From: an uncultured Chloroflexia bacterium
GTDB taxonomy: Bacteria > Chloroflexota > Anaerolineae > JAAYZQ01
Assembly (NCBI GenBank): GCA_963700285.1
Contig: CAVOXA010000014.1
Location: 980,410-1,044,409, forward strand
DNA length: 64,000 bases
Direction: 5' to 3'
In this document: positions 45,034 through 64,000 of the stretch, in pieces
How the letters are laid out: each line of letters begins with the position of its first letter
Position numbering within the stretch: position 1 is the stretch's first letter
The notes under the pieces: model-generated
What the model saw: only the letters and a program-made list of their open reading frames with translations
The model's database searches: none
Told to the model about the DNA's origin: nothing
Made by a program: the position numbers and the translations under genes

Positions 45034-46235
45034 CTACGAAGAATGGGCGTATTCGGCACATAGGCGGGCGATCTCGCCCGTGAGCGTCTGCCACTCGAAT
45101 TCTTCCTTGACTCGCCGTTGGCCGAGGCGGCCCATCTCACGGCGGCGATCCTCATCGGACAGGAGAAAGTTGACCTTGGCGGCCAGATCGGCAGCGTCTG
45201 CCTGGCGTGTAGAACAGGCTGGCCGCCTCATCACCTACAACCTCCTGCAGGGCTGGCAGCCGCGGTAGAACGGCCGGGATACCGCAGGCCCAGTACTCAA
45301 ACTCTTTCAGCGTCACCCGGCCCCGTGCGGAAAGCACGTCGGGCAGGATAACAAGGCCCAGGTCGCTGGCCGAGATGTAGCGAGCAACCTCGTCTTGAGA
45401 AACCCAGCCAGAAAAGAAGAAACGGTCAGTTAATCCGGCTGATTCGGCCCGACGCACCAGGTCGGGTACGGCGGTACCGTCGCCCACCAGCCAAAACTGG
45501 GTCTTGGGATGCTCGGCGAGGATGGCCGGGGCGGCCTCTATCAGAAGCTCAGGGCCATCCTGGGGGTCGATCACGCCATGAAAGATCAGAACGTGATCAG
45601 GCATCCGGGGCATAGGCAGCACGCAGATCAACAGCCTCCTGAAAGTGGAACACCCGCGTATCTACACCGTCGTGGACAATAACTACCCGTTCGGGTCGGG
45701 CGCCATAGTCACGGACTAGGATGTCGCGCATAGCGCCGCTGATGGTGATGATCCGATCCGAGCGGCGCACACTGGTACGTTCCATCCATCGGCCACCAGC
45801 AGCGGCCAGCCTGAGCCAGCCACCCTGATAGTCGTCGAGGTACTCAAACAGCAGGTCGGTCAGGTCCAGAACGGTCACTGTACCTGGTCGCAGCAACTTG
45901 CCCAGCAGGGCGGCAAAGCCGGCGGCCGTATTGTGCGTCAGGATCACGTCGGGCCCCAGGCGCCAGGCGTAGGCCGCCACTCGCAAAATGTTGAACGGAT
46001 ACGTCACAGCGTATTTGCGCATCTTGGCCGGATCCATGCGACTGACGCCAGACAGCGATAGCACACCCGCCGCACCCAGCTCGCGCTTTGCCTCGGACTC
46101 GTCGACGCCAAAGGATGCGGCCACGTACACCTCGTGGCCCTGCTCGACCAGTGATCGGACAATACTGAAGGTACGAGGAGTGCCTCCACCGCTGATGGGT
46201 ACCAATTCCTCAAAGATGACGACGAGTGCTTTCAT
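45034..46235 (-). CDS. GT4 glycosyltransferase (two +1 frameshifts near 45600 and 45200)
   Basis: Pieces join as GGGT..HDGVD / VGDG..LKEFEYWACGIP / DAADLA..GQRRV..F.W; each break is a single extra base. Confidence 0.85.
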
Positions 46236-47415
46236 AGGCCCAACTCCTCGTAGACCTGCTCCATTTTGCGAACCTGAGCTTGCCAGCTATACTGCGCCAG
46301 AACCTTGGCCCGCGCCGCATCGCCCAGGCCCTGTGCCCAAGCGCCATCGGCCAGTAGGTGAAGCGTGGCATCCACAAACGATTCGTCTACCGCGTCTGTT
46401 AGCAGAATCTCCTCACCGTCGACAAAGTCCTGGCCCTCAGCGCCAATGCGGGTTGAAACCACCGGGCGGGCATTGGCCGCCGCTTCCAGGATCTTGAGCC
46501 GGGTACCTGACCCCGAGTCCAGGGGTACCAGGACCACGTCAGAAGCCGAGAGGTAGTCGCTCAAGTTGGGGTGCACGCTGGCTCTGGCGTCCACAAATCC
46601 AGTAAAGATCAATCGCTCGTCACCCGGTGCGGCTGCGGCACCAGCTCCCTGGCCAATGATGACAAACCTGGCATCGGGGTAGCACGCCCAAATCTCCGGC
46701 GCGATCTGGCCGGCGATATAGTCCACGGCGCGAACGTTGGGGATATAGTCCAGCTTGCCCACAAAGGTCAAGATCGGCACGTCAGGGCCTAGACCGAGCT
46801 TCTGGCGGGCGGCGGTGGCGCCCTCGGGCCGGTAGTCAAAAAGACTCCGGATCCACACCATGAGGAATGAGTGCAAATCTCTCCAGGGGCACGTTGTACA
46901 AGTCGATCATAAAATCCCGATCCACCTCAGACAGGGCCACAACCCGGTCGGCTGAGCGACAGGCCCAGCCCTCCAACCACCGTGACGACTTTGAGAAAGG
47001 GGCTGGTCAGACCAAATCGGACAAACTTCTGATACTCGACGTTCTCCTGCATCAGTACGACAGGTACGCCGGTTCGCCTGCGCAACCATAGCGCGGTCGG
47101 GGCGGTCCACAGCAGTTCTGCCTGGATCACGTCAGGCCGGAAATCTCGAGCAGCCTGCAAAGCGGCCCGGTAGTACAGCGGATTGAACATCAGACCCTTG
47201 TAGCCCAACTGGTCCAGGGGCGACTCGCGACAATAGCGAACGGCCAGATTGGGGCCCTGTAGATCCACATCACCACGCTGGGAGTATAGGTAACACAGCA
47301 AAGCCGAGACCTGGTTGGTCTCGGACAGTACCTGCAGACTATGATAGATGGCCGTGCTGCTGCCATGCACTGGCGGAAAGACGTCGCACGGCGAGAGAAC
47401 CAGTACTCTAGGCAT
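46232..47415 (-). CDS. GT4 glycosyltransferase (two +1 frameshifts near 46982 and 46847)
   Basis: Joined reading FPPVHG...RWLEGWACRSADRVVALSEVD..IPHGVD..YIPN..GSGTRLKILEA. Confidence 0.85.
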
Positions 47416-52088: not shown

Positions 52089-52233
52089 CGCGTGTGTCCC
52101 TTTCCATCGTCTGCGTGTGACAAAGGCTACCGTGCTACCTAGAACTCCAGCCTTCATTCTGACCACATCTTATCATAGCCCTGTCTACAGAATGCATACA
52201 CGCCGGAGAGCGGATTCAAGATTCTGTATGCAA

Positions 52234-52271
52234 ATCAGGTGCAACGCACTTGCAAGTGCGTTGCACCTGAT
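52234..52271. repeat. Perfect 38-bp palindrome
   Basis: ATCAGGTGCAACGCACTTGCAAGTGCGTTGCACCTGAT equals its own reverse complement. Confidence 0.95.
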
Positions 52272-52985: not shown

Positions 52986-53034
52986 GCCGGGGCATGAATA
53001 CCCCGGCTACGGAGCCACGCCGGCTCAAGCCGGC
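52986..53034. repeat. REP-like double hairpin
   Basis: GCCGGGGCATGAATACCCCGGC and GCCGGCTCAAGCCGGC. Confidence 0.6.
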
Positions 53035-53390
53035 TGGGGGCCGGGCTCAACGTGGCGACGAGGGGGCAGAGCCCTGCGGCGGGCCCTTGAAGCGCCTGCA
53101 TAGCTTATGGAACCGGTCGAGATCGCGGACCGCGATCTCGTCCAGCACCTGGTCCCAGGTCTCGAAATGAATCTGCAAGCGCTCGAGGATTTTCTGCCTA
53201 CGTGCCTAAAAGCACCTTATCTCGCGAGTAGAGTCCCCGGCGCATTTGTATGCCTCCAGCCTCTGCCTGATCCGCTCCCTGATGTGGGCCCAATCAGACT
53301 TCCTGGACTTGATGTCCTGATTGTCCATTGGCAGGGGACGATACCGATGCGGCAGAGGCAATACGCATTGTGAGTGCATGTTGGCTCAAA

Positions 53391-56300
53391 CTAGAGTAGT
53401 TGCGCGATCTGTTGTGCGATATTCCGTACCTCGCCGGAGTCCAATCCCCCTTGCGCATCGTCCTGAGTGGTGAACAGACTAATTCCCTCGATCAGTCCAT
53501 TCTGCAAGTACCACTCGCGTTTTCTCTCCCAAGAACGCCGGTAATCATCACGGGAGAGCATACCCAGGTGCTCCCAAATGACCGGATCCCCGGCTGGATC
53601 GGCAAAAAAGAAGTCGGGTCGGCGTTTACCCGGCACGACGGTACCTTCGAACCGTGGTTCGTACTCGTAGTCAATGTCCATCTGGAAGAGCATGTTTGCG
53701 ATTACCAGTTCTGACTTGCTGCGTACCATGTGACCTTTGAGGGTTCGATGGATCAGGTGTTCAGCGTAGGGTACTGCGTCGGCCTCAGAACGGACAGTTG
53801 CCTGGAAGAGGTTGGTGTTGCGTCGAGCGGTCTCGGAGCTCTCCGGACGCGTGTACTCGTATACGCTCGAGGCGTCAGAGCCCTCAATGAGTAGGACCAA
53901 TTGCTGCCGGGACCGTGTAAGAGCCGTGTAGAGAAGCTCACGCGACAAGAGCCGGCAGTGCTTGGGCAGAACGACAAAGACCTTTCTGAATTCGCTTCCC
54001 TGGGCCTTGTGAACCGTAAGCGCATAGGCCAGCTCAAGCGGCCCCGATCCTGATGCAAAGTCTTTCGTGTTGCTGTAGCCGACAGTGTAGTATGGTCGTC
54101 CCGCAAAGACAACGTTCAGATAGCCCTTGTTGTCTGTAGCACAGATGCCTACCTCTCCGTTGGCCAGGTAGCATCATTTCCGTCTTGTAGGTTCTGGTGT
54201 CGCATGCCCAGCGCCGCTGGTTGTCCAGTTGGATGACCTTGTCACGGATTACGATCTCCTCGTCGCCCAACTTGGCTTTCCACCTGTTGGACCGCGCGTT
54301 GCGCAGTTCCTGTCCCCTGTACTGTCCTTGAACCAAGCGGTTCAGCGCATAGATACCATGGGGATGCATTCTTACCGGCGATAGAATCTGGAAATTCTCC
54401 GCGCCATCTGGGTTGTCAAAGGGAACCCACCGTTTGTCAGTGAGACCGAGCGCACGGTCGAAACCGGCCACGTCCTTGTCGTTGCTCAGACCCAAGTGCC
54501 TGCAGAACAGCTCGAAGAGCAGACTGCGCAGTTCTTCGGGAGTCTTCCAAAACTGTATCTCCAGGTCGTTGAACGACTCGCCCTGCTCCAGGTCGCTGAA
54601 GACTCGGTCGGCATCGGCTGGCTGTTGCTCTCGCGTAAACCACGAGGCCAAGTGCAGCGTGTCCGACGGGCCAGTCGCCGCCGAGCGCACCTCTACCGTC
54701 AGCTTGCCCATTGTCTGGCTGAGCATCTTTTGCGCTGGATCGTCGGAGGCGCCTGCCAGCTCCAAGCTGCCTACAAGATCAGCAAAGGGTCGTCCCACGC
54801 CGATGGGCGGCAGTTGGTTTGGATCGCCGACGAGGATAATGCGTTGCACGTGCACCTGGTCGAGTGCTTGCAGGACGGCGAACAGATCATCCATCGTCAA
54901 CATAGAACTCTCGTCGATGACGACAGTCTTCTCTTTGCGGTACTTTTTCTCGCCATCGAAGAGGGGGCGCTGTCGTTCTCCATCGTAGCGACCCAACCTG
55001 TGAAGGAACTGGGCCACGGTCATTGCCTCACCTCGGGCGGCCCTTCCGAGGAGGACCCGCGCCTTGCCCGTTGGCGCCAGGAGGAGGATGCCATCGCTCG
55101 CCACAGCTCCGCACAACAGGAGCGCGCCCAAAGTGGATGTCTTGCCGGTACCGGCTCGACCCACCAGAACTGATAGCTTTCTTGTAGTGATCCTCTCCAG
55201 GGCGTTTGCCTGTTCTTCCAAGGCATCCAGGTGCCTCGGATTGCCCGGATCGTAGTTGCCACCCCTCGCTTCAATGGCCTGTACAATCAAATCTCTCCAA
55301 TTGACGCCCGCCGACGGGAGCGGTTTCATAGCGCGAGCGCGCAGAACCTTGCGCAACCGATCCTCGCGCCCTTTGAGATCGGTCATTTGCAGGGCGGGTA
55401 TCACCACCTGCTTCTCCGGCTCTTCAGGGCTTGGATCACTCGTCAGCACCTCCAAGCGCTCCACAACGCCAGACAGAGACGCTTCATTCGCCTTGAGCCA
55501 GTCGGCTGTCACCGCACACGGATGTGAAAGAGCCAGTTTCTCCAGCCGATCCATGACCTCCCGCTCAGCCAGAAGTGAGTCGCCGCTTTCGGCAGCCGCC
55601 CTTAGCACGCTGGCAATGGCGGCGCGCACGCGCCTGGCATCGAGTTGGGAGTGCACGGTGGAAGGGGCTGGCACTGGATGTCTGGCGGCGACGGTCGAGT
55701 CTGGCAGCAGTCCACGGTCTGTAACACCGATCGAGATCGGCCCATCGGTTGCATCACCCAGGTCAACTTCAGGGATGCGATAGGGATTGGCCAGGAGCTC
55801 TGGGTCTTTGAGTGGAACCGGGCGTTGCTCAGGGTTGAACCAGCGAGCTGATTGCTTCGGCGTGAGATCAAAGCGCGAGAGCAGGCAGAGCAAGGCGCGA
55901 CGCTCTTCGGATAGCCCGGCCCAGGTGTTACTCACTGCGTCCACATCACCCTGGTAGGCGGGCTTTGGTGGCGGTGTCTGACCTTGAAGGAGCGCATCCA
56001 CAGCAGGCCATGGATCGTCTCCTAGGCTGAACAATGCCCTCCGCATAGAGATCTAGGGCCAGAGCAGTTCCCAGACGAAGTCCAATGGCCTCCAAGGCTG
56101 ATCCCAAGCCGGGAAATGCGCCTCGCTCCTTCCACACGGCGGCGATCTGCTCGTTCAGCCAATCCTCGCGCGCATCCCAGGGACCTCTTGCTATGCCATG
56201 TTCCTTGATTCGGCGTACGGCTTCCAGACATTGAGTCAGAGTGGATAAGGCAATGTCCGCACTTGCCAACTCGGACATGTACGAAAAGGCGCGCAAGTGA

Positions 56301-57098
56301 TCGGAAGCAGGTACGATGGCGATCTCGCGTGCGAGTCTGTTCCGGCGCTCATCCTCGGCTGGATCTCCTGTCGGCGCGAGATATTGGTGATAGGGAAGCA
56401 AGAAGCCTTCCGCCCCGTCGGGGCGAACCGAGTGGCGAACTAGCCGATCCCATACGAGATAGGTTGGCTGTGCGGGATCGTCGGTCTCATAGTAGATCGG
56501 CCGGCCTATGCTTGTGACGTGTCCAAGACCGATTACAAGCCGAATGATCTCATCGCCCAGGGGATGGCCTTCCTTGGTATAGAAGAACACCAAGGACTTT
56601 CCCTCTTGAAGGCGATTGAAGAACATGTCGCTCAAGGCTTCCTGGCGGGCACGTCCGAACACCCATGCTGACTTGAAGGGCGCTTCTTCATCGGGAGGGA
56701 GCGGCTCTGGAAGGGATTGGTCGATCTCGTCCTGGTTCTGGCGGAGCATCCACCAGAAGGGAACCGCAAAGGTGGAGTATGGCGGTACGGGAACGACGGT
56801 GGGCTTGAGATGGCCGTGGGTTGCCTGTGTCTTGGTCAAGGGCTGGTACGGATGTTCGGCGACACGCACCCATTCATCAGGTGTCATAAAGGCACCGGCT
56901 TCTGCCTTGCACGGAGGAAGGTCCGCTAGCCCCAAGTCGGCCCACGCCTTGCCTGCTAGCCTGTCCTCTTTGTCATCGTCCCGAGGGGTTTCGCGGATGC
57001 GATCCAGAGCAATGCAGAACGAGTTCCGTGAGGGGGCACGACAAATCGGTGCCATCCCACTGGTTATCGTGCCAGGCTACGCGGATGGAAAGATGCAT
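53391..57098 (-). CDS. RecD2-like SF1 helicase with C-terminal PD-(D/E)xK-like nuclease (about 1230 aa; frameshifts near 57047, 56030, 54170)
   Basis: MHLSIRVAWHD start; GRAGTGKT, LLAPTGKA, VIDESSM, VGDPNQLPP, LAYALTVHKAQGSEF, LYTALTR; tail RSKSE..YEYE..PDF..WEHLGM. Confidence 0.85.
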
Positions 57099-57119
57099 AA
57101 CCAACCCCTTTCTCCGGTC

Positions 57120-57913
57120 CTATGTCTGATCTCCAGCCGCTATCCCTGCGAGTTGAGCTGCAATTGCCTGCTGAAGAGCAGTGGCCTCCCCGTGTCTGAG
57201 CGTTGCTCGTCGGACATCCATCCGCTCCTCCAGCACCCACAAAGAGGGCTGGTACGCCTTCCAGTGCGACCCGAAGCCATCCGATTCGAGAAAGGCCACG
57301 GCTGCGTCTTCCTCGAAAGCCCTCAAGGTCAATCTGCGGTGACAGATGCCGCTGCCACCAGGCCCAGACGACGAGCGGAAACACCTCGCGGGACACCGGC
57401 AACCGGGCGGCAAACCGGTATTCCCCTCTGCGCTCTCCCTCGTCCAGCACGCCAAAGTACTGAAGGCTCCGCAGGAAAGCGCTGGCCGCATTGGTCACCA
57501 CCTTGCGTTGGCCGAACTGGACTAGCGGTGTGCCGGCGTACATCGCTGCTGTCTAGCTCGTCGCCCAGGGCGTGGCGACGCACCAGGAATCTGGTCGCTT
57601 CCTGGGCGACCTCGTTCTGGGCAATGAGATGCGCCAAGTAGGCCGGGGCCATCGTGCTGGCCGGATACGCCCGGCTATAGGCCACCCACACGTCTCGCTC
57701 GGCTGTGCGACGCGACTGGCCGCCGCCTTCGGTGGCGACAAAGTAGCGCAGGATGACGGTCAGGCTGTTGCGTCGCGTCTTTTCGCCGCCCAGTTCCTGC
57801 ATGGTATGGGCAAGCGCCGCTTCCACCAATTCGCCGATGGGCTGTGCTGGCTGCCACAAGGCGTGGACGTCGTGGATCCACTGGGGCTTGACAGGGAAAT
57901 CGAGGCCGATCAT
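57120..57913 (-). CDS. brxA: BREX type 3 BrxA-like protein (frameshift near 57520)
   Basis: MIG.D..., TRRNSLTVI.RYF, FGQRKVVTNAASAFLRSLQYFGVL; ATGA overlap with pglZ; position last of the core genes as in BREX-3. Confidence 0.65.
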
Positions 57914-59943
57914 GTGCCAGCACCTCCTGGCGAGCGGGTGATCTCCACAAAGGGCACCACCAGTTCCTCCAGCGACAGCCCGCCGTGGGAGATGTGCGTA
58001 GCCCCTTGCGTGTCAAAGAGCTGCGTGCCGGGCGCATAGACGGGGTGCACGTCGGGCGGCAGGGCCTTGGTGCGGTACAGTCGCAGGCCGTGCTCCGCGG
58101 CATACTCCTCCGCCAGGTCGGCCCGGTCAAAGAGGACCACACGCCGGGCATAGCTCTCTATCAGGGCCTTGGGTGGCTTCAGGCCACTGCCCACGCCGGC
58201 GATGTTGCCGTGGTCGGCGGTGAGGTAGACGCGGTAGCCGTTCTTGAGCAACAGATGCGAACAGCTCAGCCAGGCGGCCGTTCTCCAGGTGGCCCTGCAG
58301 CGTGGCATAGTAGACCCGCTTGTCGGCCTCCGGCGTCATACCCTTGACGGCGTGCATCACCTCGTCAAAGAGATTGACCAGCACACCCAGCCGCCGGTTC
58401 CTGCCCTCGGCGATGGCTCGCACCTCGTCCAGGCCCTGCCCATTCACCTTGACCGCCGCGTAGGCCACCCGCTGCCTGGGGACGTTGTGGTTGACCCAGT
58501 AGGCCTGCCAGCGTTCGGCATCCTTGTCCGTTCGCTGCAGCGTCTCGGCAAAGGCCGTGGGCGGGCGGCCGGCAAAGAGCGCCTGGCGCGAGCCACAGGC
58601 GTCACCGTGGGCGCCACGGCGTAGGTGCGGTTCTCGTCGAAAGCCAGGCCGGGCAGCGCCGGACCGAGCCACTCGCGCAGCAGGAACCACTGGTCCAGGG
58701 CCAGCCCGTCGAAGCAGAGCAGGGCCAGGCGCTCGTCGCGGCCGCACGTGCTGGAGAAACCAGCGGTTGACCTGGCTGAGACAGATGGGCCCCTTATTGT
58801 CCCAGTAATGGTCTACGGCGCTGTAGCGCGCCTGGACGAACGTCCAGAAGCTGCTCGTCCAGGGCTGCACGGGCCGCGGCCAGGTCGGGCTGGACCTGTG
58901 TCATAGATCGCCAGCGGGCAGGGTGTTGGCCTGGTAGACGACCTCGGCCCACTCGATTGGCCAGGTTGAGCCAGTCGCGCAGGTCGGTCTTGCCGCTGGG
59001 CAGGGTCGTCTCGTCCATGGCCTGGAAGCGGGCCAGCCGCGTCTTGAGGTTGTAGAGGGCCTGCGTCGGCCCGCTCCTTGACCGGCCGGCCCGCGTTCCT
59101 GTCGCGTGAGGCCAGGCCGATGGCCGTCCACTCCTGGCGTGGGCGGCGCTCTCCGGCGCCGGGGCGCGGGCGACCAGCCCCTCGGCAAAGAGGTAGCCCA
59201 GCAGCGGGCGCAGCCGGGCGTCGCCCAGGTCCACCGCCGGCGGCGTCGCCCTCGCCGGCCAGCGTGCGCGACGTAGGCCGCCCAGCTGCTCGCCCAGCCA
59301 GGCGTAGAAGGCGCCGGCGTCGGTCAGGAACTCGGGACGCAGACCGGTGTGGGCCACGCCGCGGCAGGAGGCGCTGGATGACGTACTCTTCCAGGGCCGG
59401 CGGCAGCTCGCGGGCGCTGTAGTGCTTGTGGATCAGGAACTCGACCCAGCGAGCCGGATCGCCCGCGCCAGCCGGGTCCAGGCCAAAGCAGACGCGCAGG
59501 ATGAACTCGATGGTCGGCCGCTCGCCGCGCAGCATCTCGCCGCGCGCCACGAGCTGCTGGTGGGCCGGGTAGAGGTCGGCATAGTAGGCGTTGTCCAGTT
59601 GGCGGACGACGATGGCGTTGAGGTTGGGGAAGAGGCTGCTCACGCTCAGCTCGATGCGCTTGCTCTTCTGCCACAGGTCGTAGGGGATGTGCCGCTCGCC
59701 GTCGGTGGTGTGGACCACAACGACGATGTGCAGCGCCTCGCCGTCGTCCCAGCGGCTGCGGTAGTTGCGCTCGAACAGGTTGCGGAACGAGACCTCGTCG
59801 TCCAGCTCCAGCACGTCATAGTTGCTGTTCTGGATCTCGGCCAGCAGGGCGTCGTCGCGCATCAGGTTGTCGGGGTCGATGACCAGGAGCATCCGCTCCC
59901 GCTTGGGCGTGAAATGGGCCAGGATGGCTTCTTGCCAGGTCAT
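57910..59943 (-). CDS. pglZ: BREX type 3 phosphatase PglZ (multiple frameshifts)
   Basis: WQEAILAHF..LVIDPD.L..YRSRWD.G..IPYDL..LFPNL N-terminus; ALLCFDGLALDQW; SRQALFAG; TADHGN; SHGGLSLEELVVP. Confidence 0.88.
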
Positions 59944-60022
59944 TGCATCCCTCGTTTGATTGCACCACAGAGGCACGGAGCTCCTGTGGCTTTCTCAGCG
60001 TTTACCGTGCGCCCGTGGTTCG

Positions 60023-62470
60023 TCACCCTTCCACCTTCGCCTCAGCAATATCCACAAAATCGAACAGGTCGGGGCTCGATTCCAGCAGCCGCTTGGGCAG
60101 CCGGCGGCCGACCGTCAGGATGTCCTGGAAGCGACCGGCACGGTAGGCCTCGGTGAAGCCGGCGACCAGCGCCTCCTTGCGCACCTCCTTCAGCCGGCCC
60201 CCGGCGCGCGCCGTCTCCAGGTACTCCTCGAACTGGCGCAGCAGCCGCGCCTGGCGCCTGGCCTCCAGCTCGGCCTGGGTGAGGGCGTCGGGGCGCTTCC
60301 AGCGGCCATTGGTGCGGACGAAGCCCTCTTCCAGCATGGTCATCGGTTCCGGGAGCTCGTCCTCCGAGGTTTGCAGGGCCTTGACAAAGGCGGTATAGAT
60401 CTCGTCGTAGGTCTTGGGCGTCGCCAGGAAATCCCACAGCCACTGGCGGGCGCTGCGCTCGTCGCTGATAAAGAGCACGGCCTGGCCGGCGCCCCGTTTG
60501 GCGTGCTTCGTCTTGCGCGTTTCGTACTCGTTGGCCTGGGCCTCGTCGGCGAACCAGTAGCCGTCGCGCTCGACCAGGCCCCACTGGGGCAGGGCACGGT
60601 AGAACTGCTCGGCGTTGTAGGCCACCTGGTAGCCGTGCTGGACGTAGTAGGCCAGGTACTTGGAGTAGAGCATCTCCTTGCTGCGCTCGACGTTGGCGGC
60701 TACCGGCAGCTGAGCCAGATGCTGCCGCACGAAATCGGCCTCCAAGTCCCTGCCCAGCTTGAGAGAGGAATCGCTGTGAGAAGCTGTCTCGCGGTTTGTA
60801 GGCGTTGATGACCAGATCGTTCTTGACCGGCACCGGGCGCAGTGACTTGCTTGAAGGTGCCCTGCTTCTTGTCCAGACAGTGACTTGAGCAACCAGAAAG
60901 CCAGCGCGGGCCAGGGCCTCTTGAATTGCGTTCCAGACGCTGGCTTTCGAGTTGTGGAAACACGACGGTAATCCAGCGATCCGGTTTGAGAATTCGATAC
61001 ATCTCCGCGAAACAAGCGGTCATCAACTCACGATAGTCGTCAAGTTGCTTTCGTTGAGTTCTGTTGATGATTGCTTCAGGCTGTTATTCGTGAAAACACC
61101 AGCCAAGCTTCCCACAGGAAGTTCAGCTCAGAGTACATCAGGTTGCCACCAAAAGGCGGGTCAGTGAAGATGTAGTCGACTGAATCTGGCAGGTATGTTT
61201 GCCAGATCCGTTGCAGACTGTGTGGTAATGAGCACTGCCATCTTGGACGTCGCTGATGCATCTTGGCAAGATCGCTCAGCTTGGACTCTCAGCAGCCTTA
61301 TGAACGCGATGTCTCTGTCATGAACGAGGCATATATAGAGTGCCACGAGCAGGTTTATCGCACCTGCCACGGTTGCCGGAAGTTGTATACTGTCATTTGG
61401 AGCGTCAAGGCTGCTCATCTGAGGTGAGGCAGATCAGCAAAGCATTGCGTAGGCCGAACGTCGTCTCTGGGAAAGCCGCATCGATGAACAGATGTTGCCA
61501 ATGTCCACAGATTGCGCTTCGGTAAAGAACTGATGGACGTGCATATGCCGTCTGATGCCGAGTCGTACATGGTTCCCCATCGCTGCACCGATGAACATCA
61601 TTCTTTCAGCTGGGGTACCAGTACGGGATCTCGCGCTGCTTCGATTCTGCGAATCAGCTCCAAATCATGTCGTCAGGCTTCTTTGTCATAGCGTCGTCTT
61701 GCCGACCGAGTAGTTAATGAACACAGGTACTGTCCAGAGCCTGCCCATCGCTGTTCAGAAGACTCTGCGTCATGTGATCGCTTACTCAGCTTCGCACCGC
61801 ATTCGGGACAGGGGAACTCATCGCTCACCTCCCTGCCGGCCATCATCCACGGCTAGCATCCCAAAGGACATGTTTCGTCTACGCAGTATGGGCACTGGAA
61901 GCACGTCACTCCAGACCGTGAAATTGATGCGTTGCCCTTGCGACCATCAATATGTCTGGTCTCGTACATCCAGCCGCATTCTCTCTTCAACTTGCTTTGA
62001 GAATCTGCTTGAGCCTCGCATACGAAGTCTGATCGAGTCTACTGGCGTGTTGTAGTTGTAGGCGATGAAGGTCGCAGCAGGCGAAAGGTCGCACAGTATC
62101 GCATGGCGACCTGCATCTGAGCAGCAATCACCAGTCATACCCGTGCCGCAGAAGCCGTCAAAGACGATGTCGCCTGGCTCAGTGTAGTGCTCGATGAACG
62201 GGATGATGGCCTTGTAGGGCACTTTGGTGTGGTAGGCATGGGCTTGTAGATGGGATCGCTCTTGCCTTCGGAGACATCGCCTACGTACGGCTCGCGGTGG
62301 TAGTCGTCGGTGGCCTCGTCGTAGGGCGTGCCCCACTTCTCGATGAACTCGGCGATGTGGGGGTTGGGGTAGGCGGTATAGTGCGGCGGGTCGGACAGGG
62401 CCAGCAGGTCCTCGTCCTCGCCGATGGGAAAGCCCTCGATGTGGCGGAGTTCGTCCAGGTTGTCAGTCAC
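60023..62470 (-). CDS. pglXI: BREX type 3 adenine DNA methyltransferase PglXI, copy A (multiple frameshifts)
   Basis: GFPIGEDEDLLALSDPPHYTAYPNP, AHAYHTKVP, DGFCGTGMTG (motif I), DLSPAATFI, VWSDV, DYIFTDPPFG (motif IV), DLVINAYKP; GTG after AAGGAGG. Confidence 0.85.
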
Positions 62471-63340
62471 TATGCTTCTCCTCCTTGCACGAGACCATGT
62501 GGTCATCATGGCCAGTTACTCGAGCAGATCGCTATGCCTCCACCTTCGCCTCAGCAATGTCCACAAAGTCGAACAGGTCAGGGCTGGACTCCAGCAGCCG
62601 CTTGGGCAGCCTGCGGCCCACGGTCAGGATGTCCTGGAAGCGGCTGGCACGGTACGCCTCGGTGAACCCGGCGACCAGCGCCTCCTTGCGCACCTCCTTC
62701 AGCCGCCCTCCGGCGCGCGCCGTGGCCAGATACTCCTCGAACTGGCGCAGCAGCCGCGCCTGGCGGCGTGGCCTCCAGCTCCGCCTGGGTCAGGGCATCC
62801 GGGCGCTTCCAGCGGCCATTGGTGCGGATGAAGCCCTCTTCCAGCATGGTCATCGGTTCCGGGAGCTCATCCTCCGAGGTTTGCAGGGCTTTGACAAAGG
62901 CGGTATAGATCTCGTCGTAGGTCTTGGGCGTCGCCAGGAAATCCCACAGCCACTGGCGGGCGCTGCGCTCGTCGCTGACAAAGAGCACGGCCTGGCCGGT
63001 GCCCCGTCTTGCCGTGTCTTCGTTTTGCGCGTTTCGTACTCTTGGCCTGGGCCTCGTCGGCGAACCAGTAGCCGTCGCGCTCCACCAGGCCCCACTGGGG
63101 CAGGGCGCGGTAGAACTGCTCGGCGTTGTAGGCCACCTGGTAGCCGTGCTGGACGTAGTAGGCCAGGTACTTGGAGTAGAGCATCTCTTTGCTGCGCTCG
63201 ACGTTGACCGCTACCGGCAACTGGGCCAGGTGCTGGCGGACGAACTCCGGCTCCAGTCCATGCCCGGCCTGGCGAGATGAAACGTTCCTTGAAGGACCTG
63301 TCCGTGGCTTGTAGGCATTGATGACCAGATCGTTCTTGAC
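60031..63340 (-). repeat. About 800-bp direct repeat (60031-60830 vs 62540-63340)
   Basis: Offset about 2510 nt; about 5 mismatches in the 200 nt compared by eye (60291-60490 vs 62801-63000). Confidence 0.9.
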
Positions 63341-64000
63341 TGCGCCAGGTGCGGTGACTCTGCTTGTACGTGCCCTGTTCTTTGTCCAGGACAGCAACTT
63401 GGGCAACTAGGAAACCAGCACGTGCCAGGGACTCTTGGATGGCATTCCAGACAGCTGCACTTGAATTGTGGAATACGACTGTGATCCATCGACCAGGCTT
63501 TAGTTTCCTAGCGAGTTGCTGAAACAGCCGATAGCATCAGGCCTCGGTATGATACCAGGTCCTTGCGTTGCGTTTTGCTGCAGATCGCTTCGGGTTTGGA
63601 ATTGGTGAAAACCCGTAGCCACGCTTCCCAGATGAAGTTCATTTCCGAGTACATCATATTGCCTCCAAAAGGAGGATCAACAAAGATGTAGTCAATGGAT
63701 TCATCCGGTACGTTGTTCAAGTCAGTCGCGCTCTGTGTGCTGATGGCAACCCCACAAAACTCAGATGTACGCTCTGGCGCCCACTTCTTGAAGCTGTTCA
63801 GTTTCTTCTCAATCAAGTTCGGAAGATTTCTTTCGGCGTGGATTGAAGTCGGTTGTAGCGTATTGGGTATTTGCCCTGCCAGATTGATGCTGCCTTTCGA
63901 GATTCCTACATTGTGCATTCTGGAGCCAGTCTTGGTCATGACTGAGGTTATTGCGAAACGTAGGACTGCGGACACTTCATACGGCATCTTGCTGGCTCGT
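62532..64000 (-). CDS. pglXI: BREX type 3 PglXI methyltransferase, copy B (5' end outside window; frameshifts)
   Basis: QSATDL..DYIFVDPPFGGN..YSEMN, AVKNDLVINAYKP, C-terminus near-identical to copy A. Confidence 0.85.

Follow-up and report, generated by a model that had tools for sequence, protein, structure and literature searches.

The last 64 kb of contig C14 (CAVOXA010000014.1) from the genome of an uncultured Chloroflexia bacterium (7.05 Mb, 89% complete, 6.5% contamination), in the following called the window, run into a type 3 bacteriophage exclusion (BREX) operon that carries two tandem copies of the methyltransferase gene pglXI. Both copies share a nearly identical tail but differ in the middle part that is predicted to recognize the DNA target. 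Based on sequence comparisons, we consider it probable on balance that this locus is a BREX-3 system with two specificities, whose recognition middles were exchanged by homologous recombination between conserved flanks. The operon is encoded on the minus strand and reads, from the contig end inward, pglXI copy B, a spacer, pglXI copy A, pglZ, brxA and a gene for a RecD-like helicase.

A first-pass annotation of the sequence had proposed two pglXI genes in tandem about 2.5 kb apart. The tandem is real, with two distinct genes on the minus strand at an offset of 2.51 kb. Copy A (60023-62470) is present in full length with about 815 codons from a GTG start at 62470 to a TGA stop at 60023. As contig C14 ends inside copy B, the assembly contains about 490 codons of its 3' part (62532-64000, TAG stop at 62532, placed by frameshift-aware alignment), which comprise the distal insert, the DPPF catalytic half and the helical tail. 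Both copies match the PADLOC PglXI model PDLC02541, which was the top PADLOC match for all seven window pieces scanned. Between the stop of B and the start of A lies a spacer of 61 nt (62471-62531) with a purine-rich ribosome-binding-like run. The C-terminal helical regions form a direct repeat (60029-60745 in A, 62538-63255 in B); the A part is free of frameshifts and its protein is 96% identical to homolog P0001. The near-identity of the 3' ends noted before is confirmed with 93.3%, but it extends over 720 nt and not over about 800 nt. The differences show the third-position bias noted before (6, 2 and 31 at codon positions 1, 2 and 3 over 221 comparable tail codons), which corresponds to 30 synonymous and 7 replacement changes in these codons away from breaks. 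This pattern dominated by silent changes is not what one sequence read twice with errors would give. The tails of A and B are under purifying selection. The adjoining 480 nt or so preceding the repeat, with QSATDL and both DPPF motifs, are 71% identical, so the DPPF blocks are indeed related but drifted, and 41 of 65 identical residues in the catalytic half use different codons in A and B. The split between the catalytic halves is old and the tails are much closer. Further upstream, where about 88 codons of B are visible, a blastn comparison of A and B was negative, as the first-pass annotation had supposed for the part upstream of QSATDL. We also asked whether residues 597-700 (4 of 87 silent differences) represent a recent tract of gene conversion, but do not claim this since the same stretch is also the most conserved one against outside loci.

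A similar picture could result if the assembly had fused two strain alleles one after the other where coverage thins out toward the contig end, and the contig-end position with its many errors as well as the contamination of the genome point in this direction. However, the unique 61-nt spacer falls cleanly between the stop and the ribosome-binding-like run, without homology that would explain a misjoin, and the same gene adjacency is found in locus L060 of HGW-Chloroflexi-10 and in read run X3. In detail, a 316-nt contig of this independent short-read assembly covers 62301-62604 and joins a pglXI end to a pglXI start by a different, shorter spacer than that of the window. We regard a mis-assembly as highly improbable.

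The target-recognition domain of BrxXI proteins has been described as a zinc-finger insert of about 250 residues between the methyltransferase halves, followed by a helical tail (PMC12839542). Among 110 full-length homologs, conservation is 0.35-0.50 at residues 321-420 (P0001 numbering) compared with about 0.8 at both ends, and the sequences fall into 42 distal-insert types at 55% identity. Copy A contains motif I (DGFCGTG), two CxxC pairs of the zinc finger (CPYC and CPEC), DPPF and the helical tail; the predicted structure of homolog P0014 (predicted local distance difference test score 90.3) likewise has a mainly helical tail. The predicted target-recognition insert of copy A, with approximate limits that follow the published insert definition (PMC12839542), spans 61221-62045, belongs to the P0019/P0081/P0057 type and is richest in errors. 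The visible distal part of the corresponding insert in copy B (63736-64000) is frameshift-free and of the P0014/P0030/P0100 type. It is identical to P0014 in 74 of 88 residues (84%; score 354 against a shuffled-DNA maximum of 46), and the insert of copy A scores 140 with P0081, 139 with P0019 and 118 with P0057 (shuffled maximum 41). A comparison of both types (P0014 and P0019) revealed 23% identity over residues 341-415 and 37% over 250-340. The divergence of the middles suspected before thus reflects two different, recognizable insert types. The GC content at third codon positions of copy A is 0.50-0.63 in the insert versus 0.82-0.92 in the flanks; in high-GC hosts the gene ends have values of about 0.7-0.9, and most values for insert and catalytic half lie at 0.4-0.7. 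The tail tree places P0014 (insert type of B) and P0019 (insert type of A) as sisters with 98-99 support, and the contigs of these two proteins differ in size. The exchange of residues 445-527 in MtsC, the methyltransferase of the BREX-related MANTIS system, switched the methylated motif (bioRxiv 10.64898/2026.09.23.753747), and a profile comparison aligned PglXI with the DUF1156 family (504 columns, probability 98.9). Searches of the PDB returned weak motif matches by sequence and generic S-adenosylmethionine-dependent folds by structure, and no closer solved relative.

Judged from alignments and trees, each copy is a mosaic in which tail and middle come from different lineages. The catalytic half of copy B is, like its insert, closest to P0014 (88%), whereas its tail is 95% identical to copy A and 94% to P0001. 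Along the gene, B resembles P0014 as far as residue 540 or so (68-96% per 30 residues) and A and P0001 from about residue 600 onward (95-100% to A), which places the switch of lineage at about residues 541-600. The insert of copy A fits P0019/P0244 best (39/75 residues versus 18/75 for P0001), whereas its ends fit P0001 best (121/138 and 240/253 versus 111 and 206 for P0019/P0244). In approximately unbiased (AU) tests on the tail data (30 rows, with pairs and kin deliberately included), a grouping of B with its insert kin was rejected with p 4e-5. With the insert data (29 rows, copy A left out) six of seven tail-sister groupings were rejected (p 0.03 to 3.5e-55), and the grouping of P0047 with P0056 was not (p 0.17). 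Furthermore, in 13 loci, which are related and so not independent, the identity of the tail correlates with that of PglZ (rho 0.51, Mantel p 0.0025), as does that of the N-terminus (rho 0.44, p 0.03), whereas proximal insert (rho -0.08) and catalytic half (rho 0.00) show no such relation. We therefore assume that the moving unit corresponds roughly to residues 141-560. A comparable movement of recognition domains, seen as incongruent trees, is described for type III mod genes of Helicobacter (PMC3467074). The earlier idea of a recombination cassette that swaps modules holds on the evolutionary scale, as the mosaic genes and incongruent trees indicate, but not in the sense of a programmed switch: there are no long inverted repeats that pair the two copies, which are direct repeats, and no recombinase gene is visible in 53391-64000, with the DNA upstream of B lying beyond the contig. 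This stretch, from the RecD-like gene to the end of the contig, is filled by five other genes and could not accommodate a recombinase gene as well. A deletion through the direct repeat is possible.

Tandem pglXI genes are, as far as contigs and proteins can tell, a recurring feature within a Chloroflexota-rich clade of PglXI proteins of about 815 aa. The survey of BREX-3 loci suggested by the first-pass annotation yielded nine same-contig pairs among the matches listed, one of them a tandem verified in DNA. The verified tandem is locus L060 with the order brxC, pglXI, pglXI, two accessory genes, brxHII, pglZ and brxA; its pglXI pair is intact and has the adjacent accessions PKO16710.1 and PKO16711.1. 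The nine pairs, defined by identical contig size and a shared source, occur among 120 close homologs listed of 190, compared with none among 119 listed controls from a search with a longer PglXI, and by chance 0.28 would be expected in each set. Per contig of at least 10 kb this amounts to 9/61 versus 0/82 (Fisher p 3e-4). All nine pairs differ in insert type, with distal inserts that are 24-35% identical (family median 27%), and DPPF and motif I are kept in 18 of 18 partners. In six of the nine pairs the tails are 80-89% identical and the partner ranks 1-5. Searches in other taxonomic and genetic contexts gave no further tandem: 22 of 400 other genomes of the same class match, two of them with two copies on different contigs; 22 of 300 other genomes of the family of L060 match, with one match each; 22 of 400 genomes match in the phylum search, with two candidates scored per genome; and none of 16 plasmid records and no member of the more distant PglXI clade showed a tandem.

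Some neighborhoods of these relatives deserve mention. The two accessory genes between pglXI and brxHII in L060 (6178-9371) are also present in L061 (1513-4774) and encode a protein of about 190-210 aa and a KGGVGR-ATPase/Sll1717-like protein. In L043-L045, L047 and L159, brxC-pglXI is followed by a gene of about 1200 aa and a helicase-like gene of about 1650 aa, and no pglZ adjoins pglXI in the DNA fetched. P0250 and P0112 share a Joint Genome Institute contig (9815 nt) and have 88% identity over 230 residues; they may be a tenth pair, which was not counted, and P0250 continues with an EAD11 domain instead of the usual tail.

Paired or fused type IIS methyltransferases such as M.FokI and the M1/M2 pairs methylate both strands of one site, and an obligate pair of this kind, acting on the two strands of one asymmetric site, would also explain two adjacent genes. 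The protein P0290 (1276 aa, N-terminal helix-turn-helix, without BREX tail) fuses two complete PglXI-like modules, each with motif I, zinc finger and DPPF, in one chain, the window pieces also match the second half of the 1344-position type II methyltransferase model PDLC03312, and the bearers of the B and A insert types, P0014 and P0019, are sisters in the tail tree. Still, these two are not found on contigs of one size, and insert types are not fixed in their pairing: types 6, 7 and 9 are each paired with two different partners, and types 0, 1 and 7 of the pairs are also found in single-copy loci (L062, L063, L079; L075; L056). This recurrence with different partners and alone argues against an obligate pair, and BREX and MANTIS mark one strand only. 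We consider a two-strand pair very unlikely.

Another reading sees the tandem as transient, an intermediate or a reservoir. A foreign allele would enter by a single crossover, one copy would do most of the work, and recombination via the 720-nt repeat would pop one middle out again, so that the population would switch its specificity instead of using two simultaneously. With 93% identity the repeat is long enough for this, 11 of the 12 close-clade loci described below are single, and the contig break inside the insert of B together with the error peak in the insert of A looks as if few molecules carry them. Moreover, switching of pglX middles is known from the type 1 BREX of L. rhamnosus (PMC9881135). 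On the other hand, the 30 silent differences between the repeat copies imply that these evolved separately, or coexisted, for a long time, three pairs have diverged tails (59-84% identical, two of them strongly with 72% and 59%) and yet full-length genes, pglZ, which should be present in every cell, is error-rich as well, and neither a recombinase nor inverted repeats are visible. This scenario seems rather unlikely to us. Joints between the copies in contigs of the read runs were not used, as single-copy relatives of other organisms aligned on the repeat; the three runs hold 5-9% of the sequence words and come from other organisms.

In this assembly the genes of the operon are interrupted by frameshifts, most of all copy A with 21-24 against six references aligned over most of the gene and up to 36 against the closest insert type at a lower frameshift penalty. 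Copy B has 4-8 frameshifts, pglZ 11-12, brxA 2 and the RecD-like gene 2-3. Ten housekeeping genes elsewhere in the genome contain 4 frameshifts in 14.6 kb (0.27 per kb; one further query gave no match). The excess in A and pglZ over this rate, together with brxC and brxF missing from the assembly, would suit a locus, or at least a copy A, that is decaying into a pseudogene, so that at most one specificity works. Bacterial gene decay is deletion-biased, but in copy A 26 extra bases are opposed by 10 missing ones in comparison with the closest insert type. Read through in their best alignments, A, B, pglZ, brxA and the RecD-like gene show no in-frame stop, with 1-2 stops in copy A against poorer references, and conserved columns are retained as often as usual (236/242 in A and 155/156 in B, homolog median 98%). 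The breaks are patchy, with none in 59358-60743, and the broken genes lie within the last 11 kb of the contig. Taken together, the missing stops, the kept columns, the excess of insertions and the patchy breaks suggest long-read errors at a thin contig end, and we infer that both genes are intact in the cell; decay appears unlikely. The coverage by long open reading frames (ORFs) along contigs was rejected as a map of the error rate, as it is too noisy at 61% GC. Apart from the operon, two glycosyltransferase-like genes (labeled by eye) at 45152-47415 on the minus strand each appear as two ORFs that overlap or adjoin, which probably reflects additional frameshifts in the assembly.

The dual-specificity BREX-3 proposed in the first-pass annotation is well backed by these comparisons. 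If the frameshifts are indeed sequencing errors, such a system could work as follows. The insert of each enzyme would set its DNA motif, as in the homologous MtsC of MANTIS. One shared BrxC would load each of the two enzymes, each of which would mark a short asymmetric motif of its own on one strand, and unmarked motifs on incoming phage DNA would trigger restriction through PglZ. In type 1 BREX, the methyltransferase sets the specificity of both marking and restriction (PMC11341690, PMC12707154). The tail would be the part that fits the local BREX machine, and a new specificity would arise from a new middle on a tail of the resident type, joined to it by crossovers within the conserved block at the N-terminus and around residues 540-600. 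The idea of a tail fitting the machine agrees with a gene in locus L040 (8024-10561, minus strand), which directly follows pglXI and encodes a protein of 845 aa without methyltransferase motif that carries HATPase_c_4 and has the C-terminal region of PglXI at its end (profile 736-917). In L161, a related gene of 600 aa stands in front of pglXI.

Several observations weigh against a working system of this kind. The 5' part of copy B, about 330 codons, is missing past the contig end, and the segment swapped in MtsC corresponds, by a rough motif IV offset, to about PglXI residues 250-340, which fall mostly into this missing part. Searches of the assembly, which is 89% complete and whose contig ends inside B, did not recover brxF and brxC. 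The damage is local, as copy A is heavily broken compared with the few frameshifts of the housekeeping genes. Among twelve close-clade loci with at least 0.7 kb of DNA on each side of the gene (L055, L056, L060, L062, L063, L071, L072, L073, L075, L076, L079, L150; loci cut nearer to the gene were left out) a single one is tandem, and eight of the nine pairs are deduced from identical contig size, that of L060 alone being seen as DNA. A homogenization of tails is not general, since three of the nine pairs have tails of 84%, 72% and 59% identity with a partner rank of 11th or lower, and the distal insert also tracks PglZ weakly over the 13 loci (rho 0.29, p 0.03). Finally, a second BREX methyltransferase of L. 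paracasei Zhang did not account for methylation (PMC10164179), and the literature searched yielded no functional work on type 3 BREX.

A more far-reaching form of the two-specificity reading is tentative and in our opinion doubtful: an expandable methyltransferase slot in a Chloroflexota lineage of type 3 BREX, in which about 40 circulating recognition modules would be attached by recombination to a docking tail of the resident type and stacked two per BrxC-PglZ, with mixed pairs of the two motifs as trigger of restriction. If so, a phage could not escape by purging one motif or by biasing it to one strand, and crossover in the tail repeat would allow a population to contract to one specificity and to expand again.

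The remaining genes of the operon follow copy A on the minus strand. pglZ (57910-59943) belongs to the BREX type 3 family (NF033449, 285.8 bits versus a cut-off of 250). The gene at 57120-57913 is assigned as brxA; its PADLOC BrxA matches are weak (E about 2e-4), and 147-190 of about 252 residues (58-75%) are identical to the gene that follows pglZ in relatives. The RecD-like helicase gene (53391-57098) matches the PADLOC candidate family PDC-S68 in three pieces (PDLC05065, E 1e-192 to 1e-69). A helicase of this family is also located 3' of brxA in L055 (19434-20738) and L076 (16821-20561), and this same position in two close relatives suggests a recurring accessory of this BREX-3 clade. At the sequence level, the type 3 assignment rests on pglXI, pglZ and brxA. 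In the relatives L056, L062 and L150, brxF and brxC are present. brxHII, which occurs in 77% of type 3 systems (PMC12839542), is absent between pglXI and pglZ, and elsewhere in the assembly there are generic SNF2 fragments, none of them convincing; in L055, L075, L076 and L079 it lies upstream of pglXI, a position before which the DNA of the window stops. Just beyond the defense genes, a short element at 52996-53045 recurs with 93% identity close to the end of contig C8. A near-perfect palindrome of 38 nt at 52233-52271 has copies on contigs C9 and C10, and contigs of all three read runs align to it before they diverge, a behavior like that of a dispersed element of the repetitive extragenic palindromic type.

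The locus shares with the described type 3 BREX (PMC12839542) the pglXI insert with a four-cysteine zinc finger between motifs I and IV, the helical tail, the type 3 pglZ and brxA, and relatives of the window add brxF, brxC and often brxHII. It differs by two pglXI genes with different inserts, a second copy not being mentioned in the extract of that study, and PglXI of this clade has about 815 aa compared with mostly 900-1050. No report of tandem pglXI in type 3 BREX was found in the literature searched, and the supplement of the same study may list such neighborhoods. BREX operons commonly contain additional embedded genes (bioRxiv 10.1101/2024.01.29.577857), and a second BREX methyltransferase is present in L. 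paracasei Zhang (PMC10164179). With MtsC of MANTIS (Gao_RL, BREX-related type 2), PglXI has in common a homologous alpha-group methyltransferase with central insert and presumably loading by an AAA+ ATPase, but MANTIS has one methyltransferase and a helicase-nuclease effector, whereas the window has PglZ. The scores lie far below the family cut-off: P0001 reaches 68.5 bits with the DUF1156 family NF042963 (cut-off 1000), and the genome of the window has no match at 1e-100. In the type 1 BREX of L. rhamnosus (PMC9881135) the middle of the methyltransferase also varies while the ends are constant, but in that system the switching of one expressed pglX depends on a recombinase and inverted repeats, whereas the copies of the window are direct. 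Similarly, recognition domains of Helicobacter type III mod genes recombine via conserved flanks (Furuta and Kobayashi, 2012, PMC3467074). These are classical restriction-modification genes at separate loci, whereas the moving unit here includes the DPPF catalytic half and both products belong to one BREX operon.

Natural pairs that share host, BREX machine and nearly a tail, but not the middle, are ready-made swap experiments, and with 42 insert types in 110 sequences a whole pool of DNA specificities may exist. In particular the locus of HGW-Chloroflexi-10, in which both genes are intact, could reveal which part sets the motif, whether BrxC is shared and whether one or two motifs are needed for defense. 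The system that the window most likely works like is the type V BREX of H. hispanica, in which BrxX1 and BrxX2 (53% identical) mark two motifs independently with N4-methylcytosine and either deletion abolishes defense (bioRxiv 10.64898/2026.04.28.721311). In both cases one locus encodes two methyltransferases, with different specificity in H. hispanica and presumably so in the window. The surprise is limited, since two specificities in one BREX have already been shown for type V. However, type V is archaeal, its BrxX-type enzymes are separated by brxZ and there are two BrxC, whereas the enzymes of the window are of PglXI type, adjacent and encoded upstream of a type 3 pglZ, and in the clade of the window many insert types combine freely across loci. 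On this comparison, our verdict is a recurring, clade-restricted variant of type 3 BREX that would work like the type V dual system.

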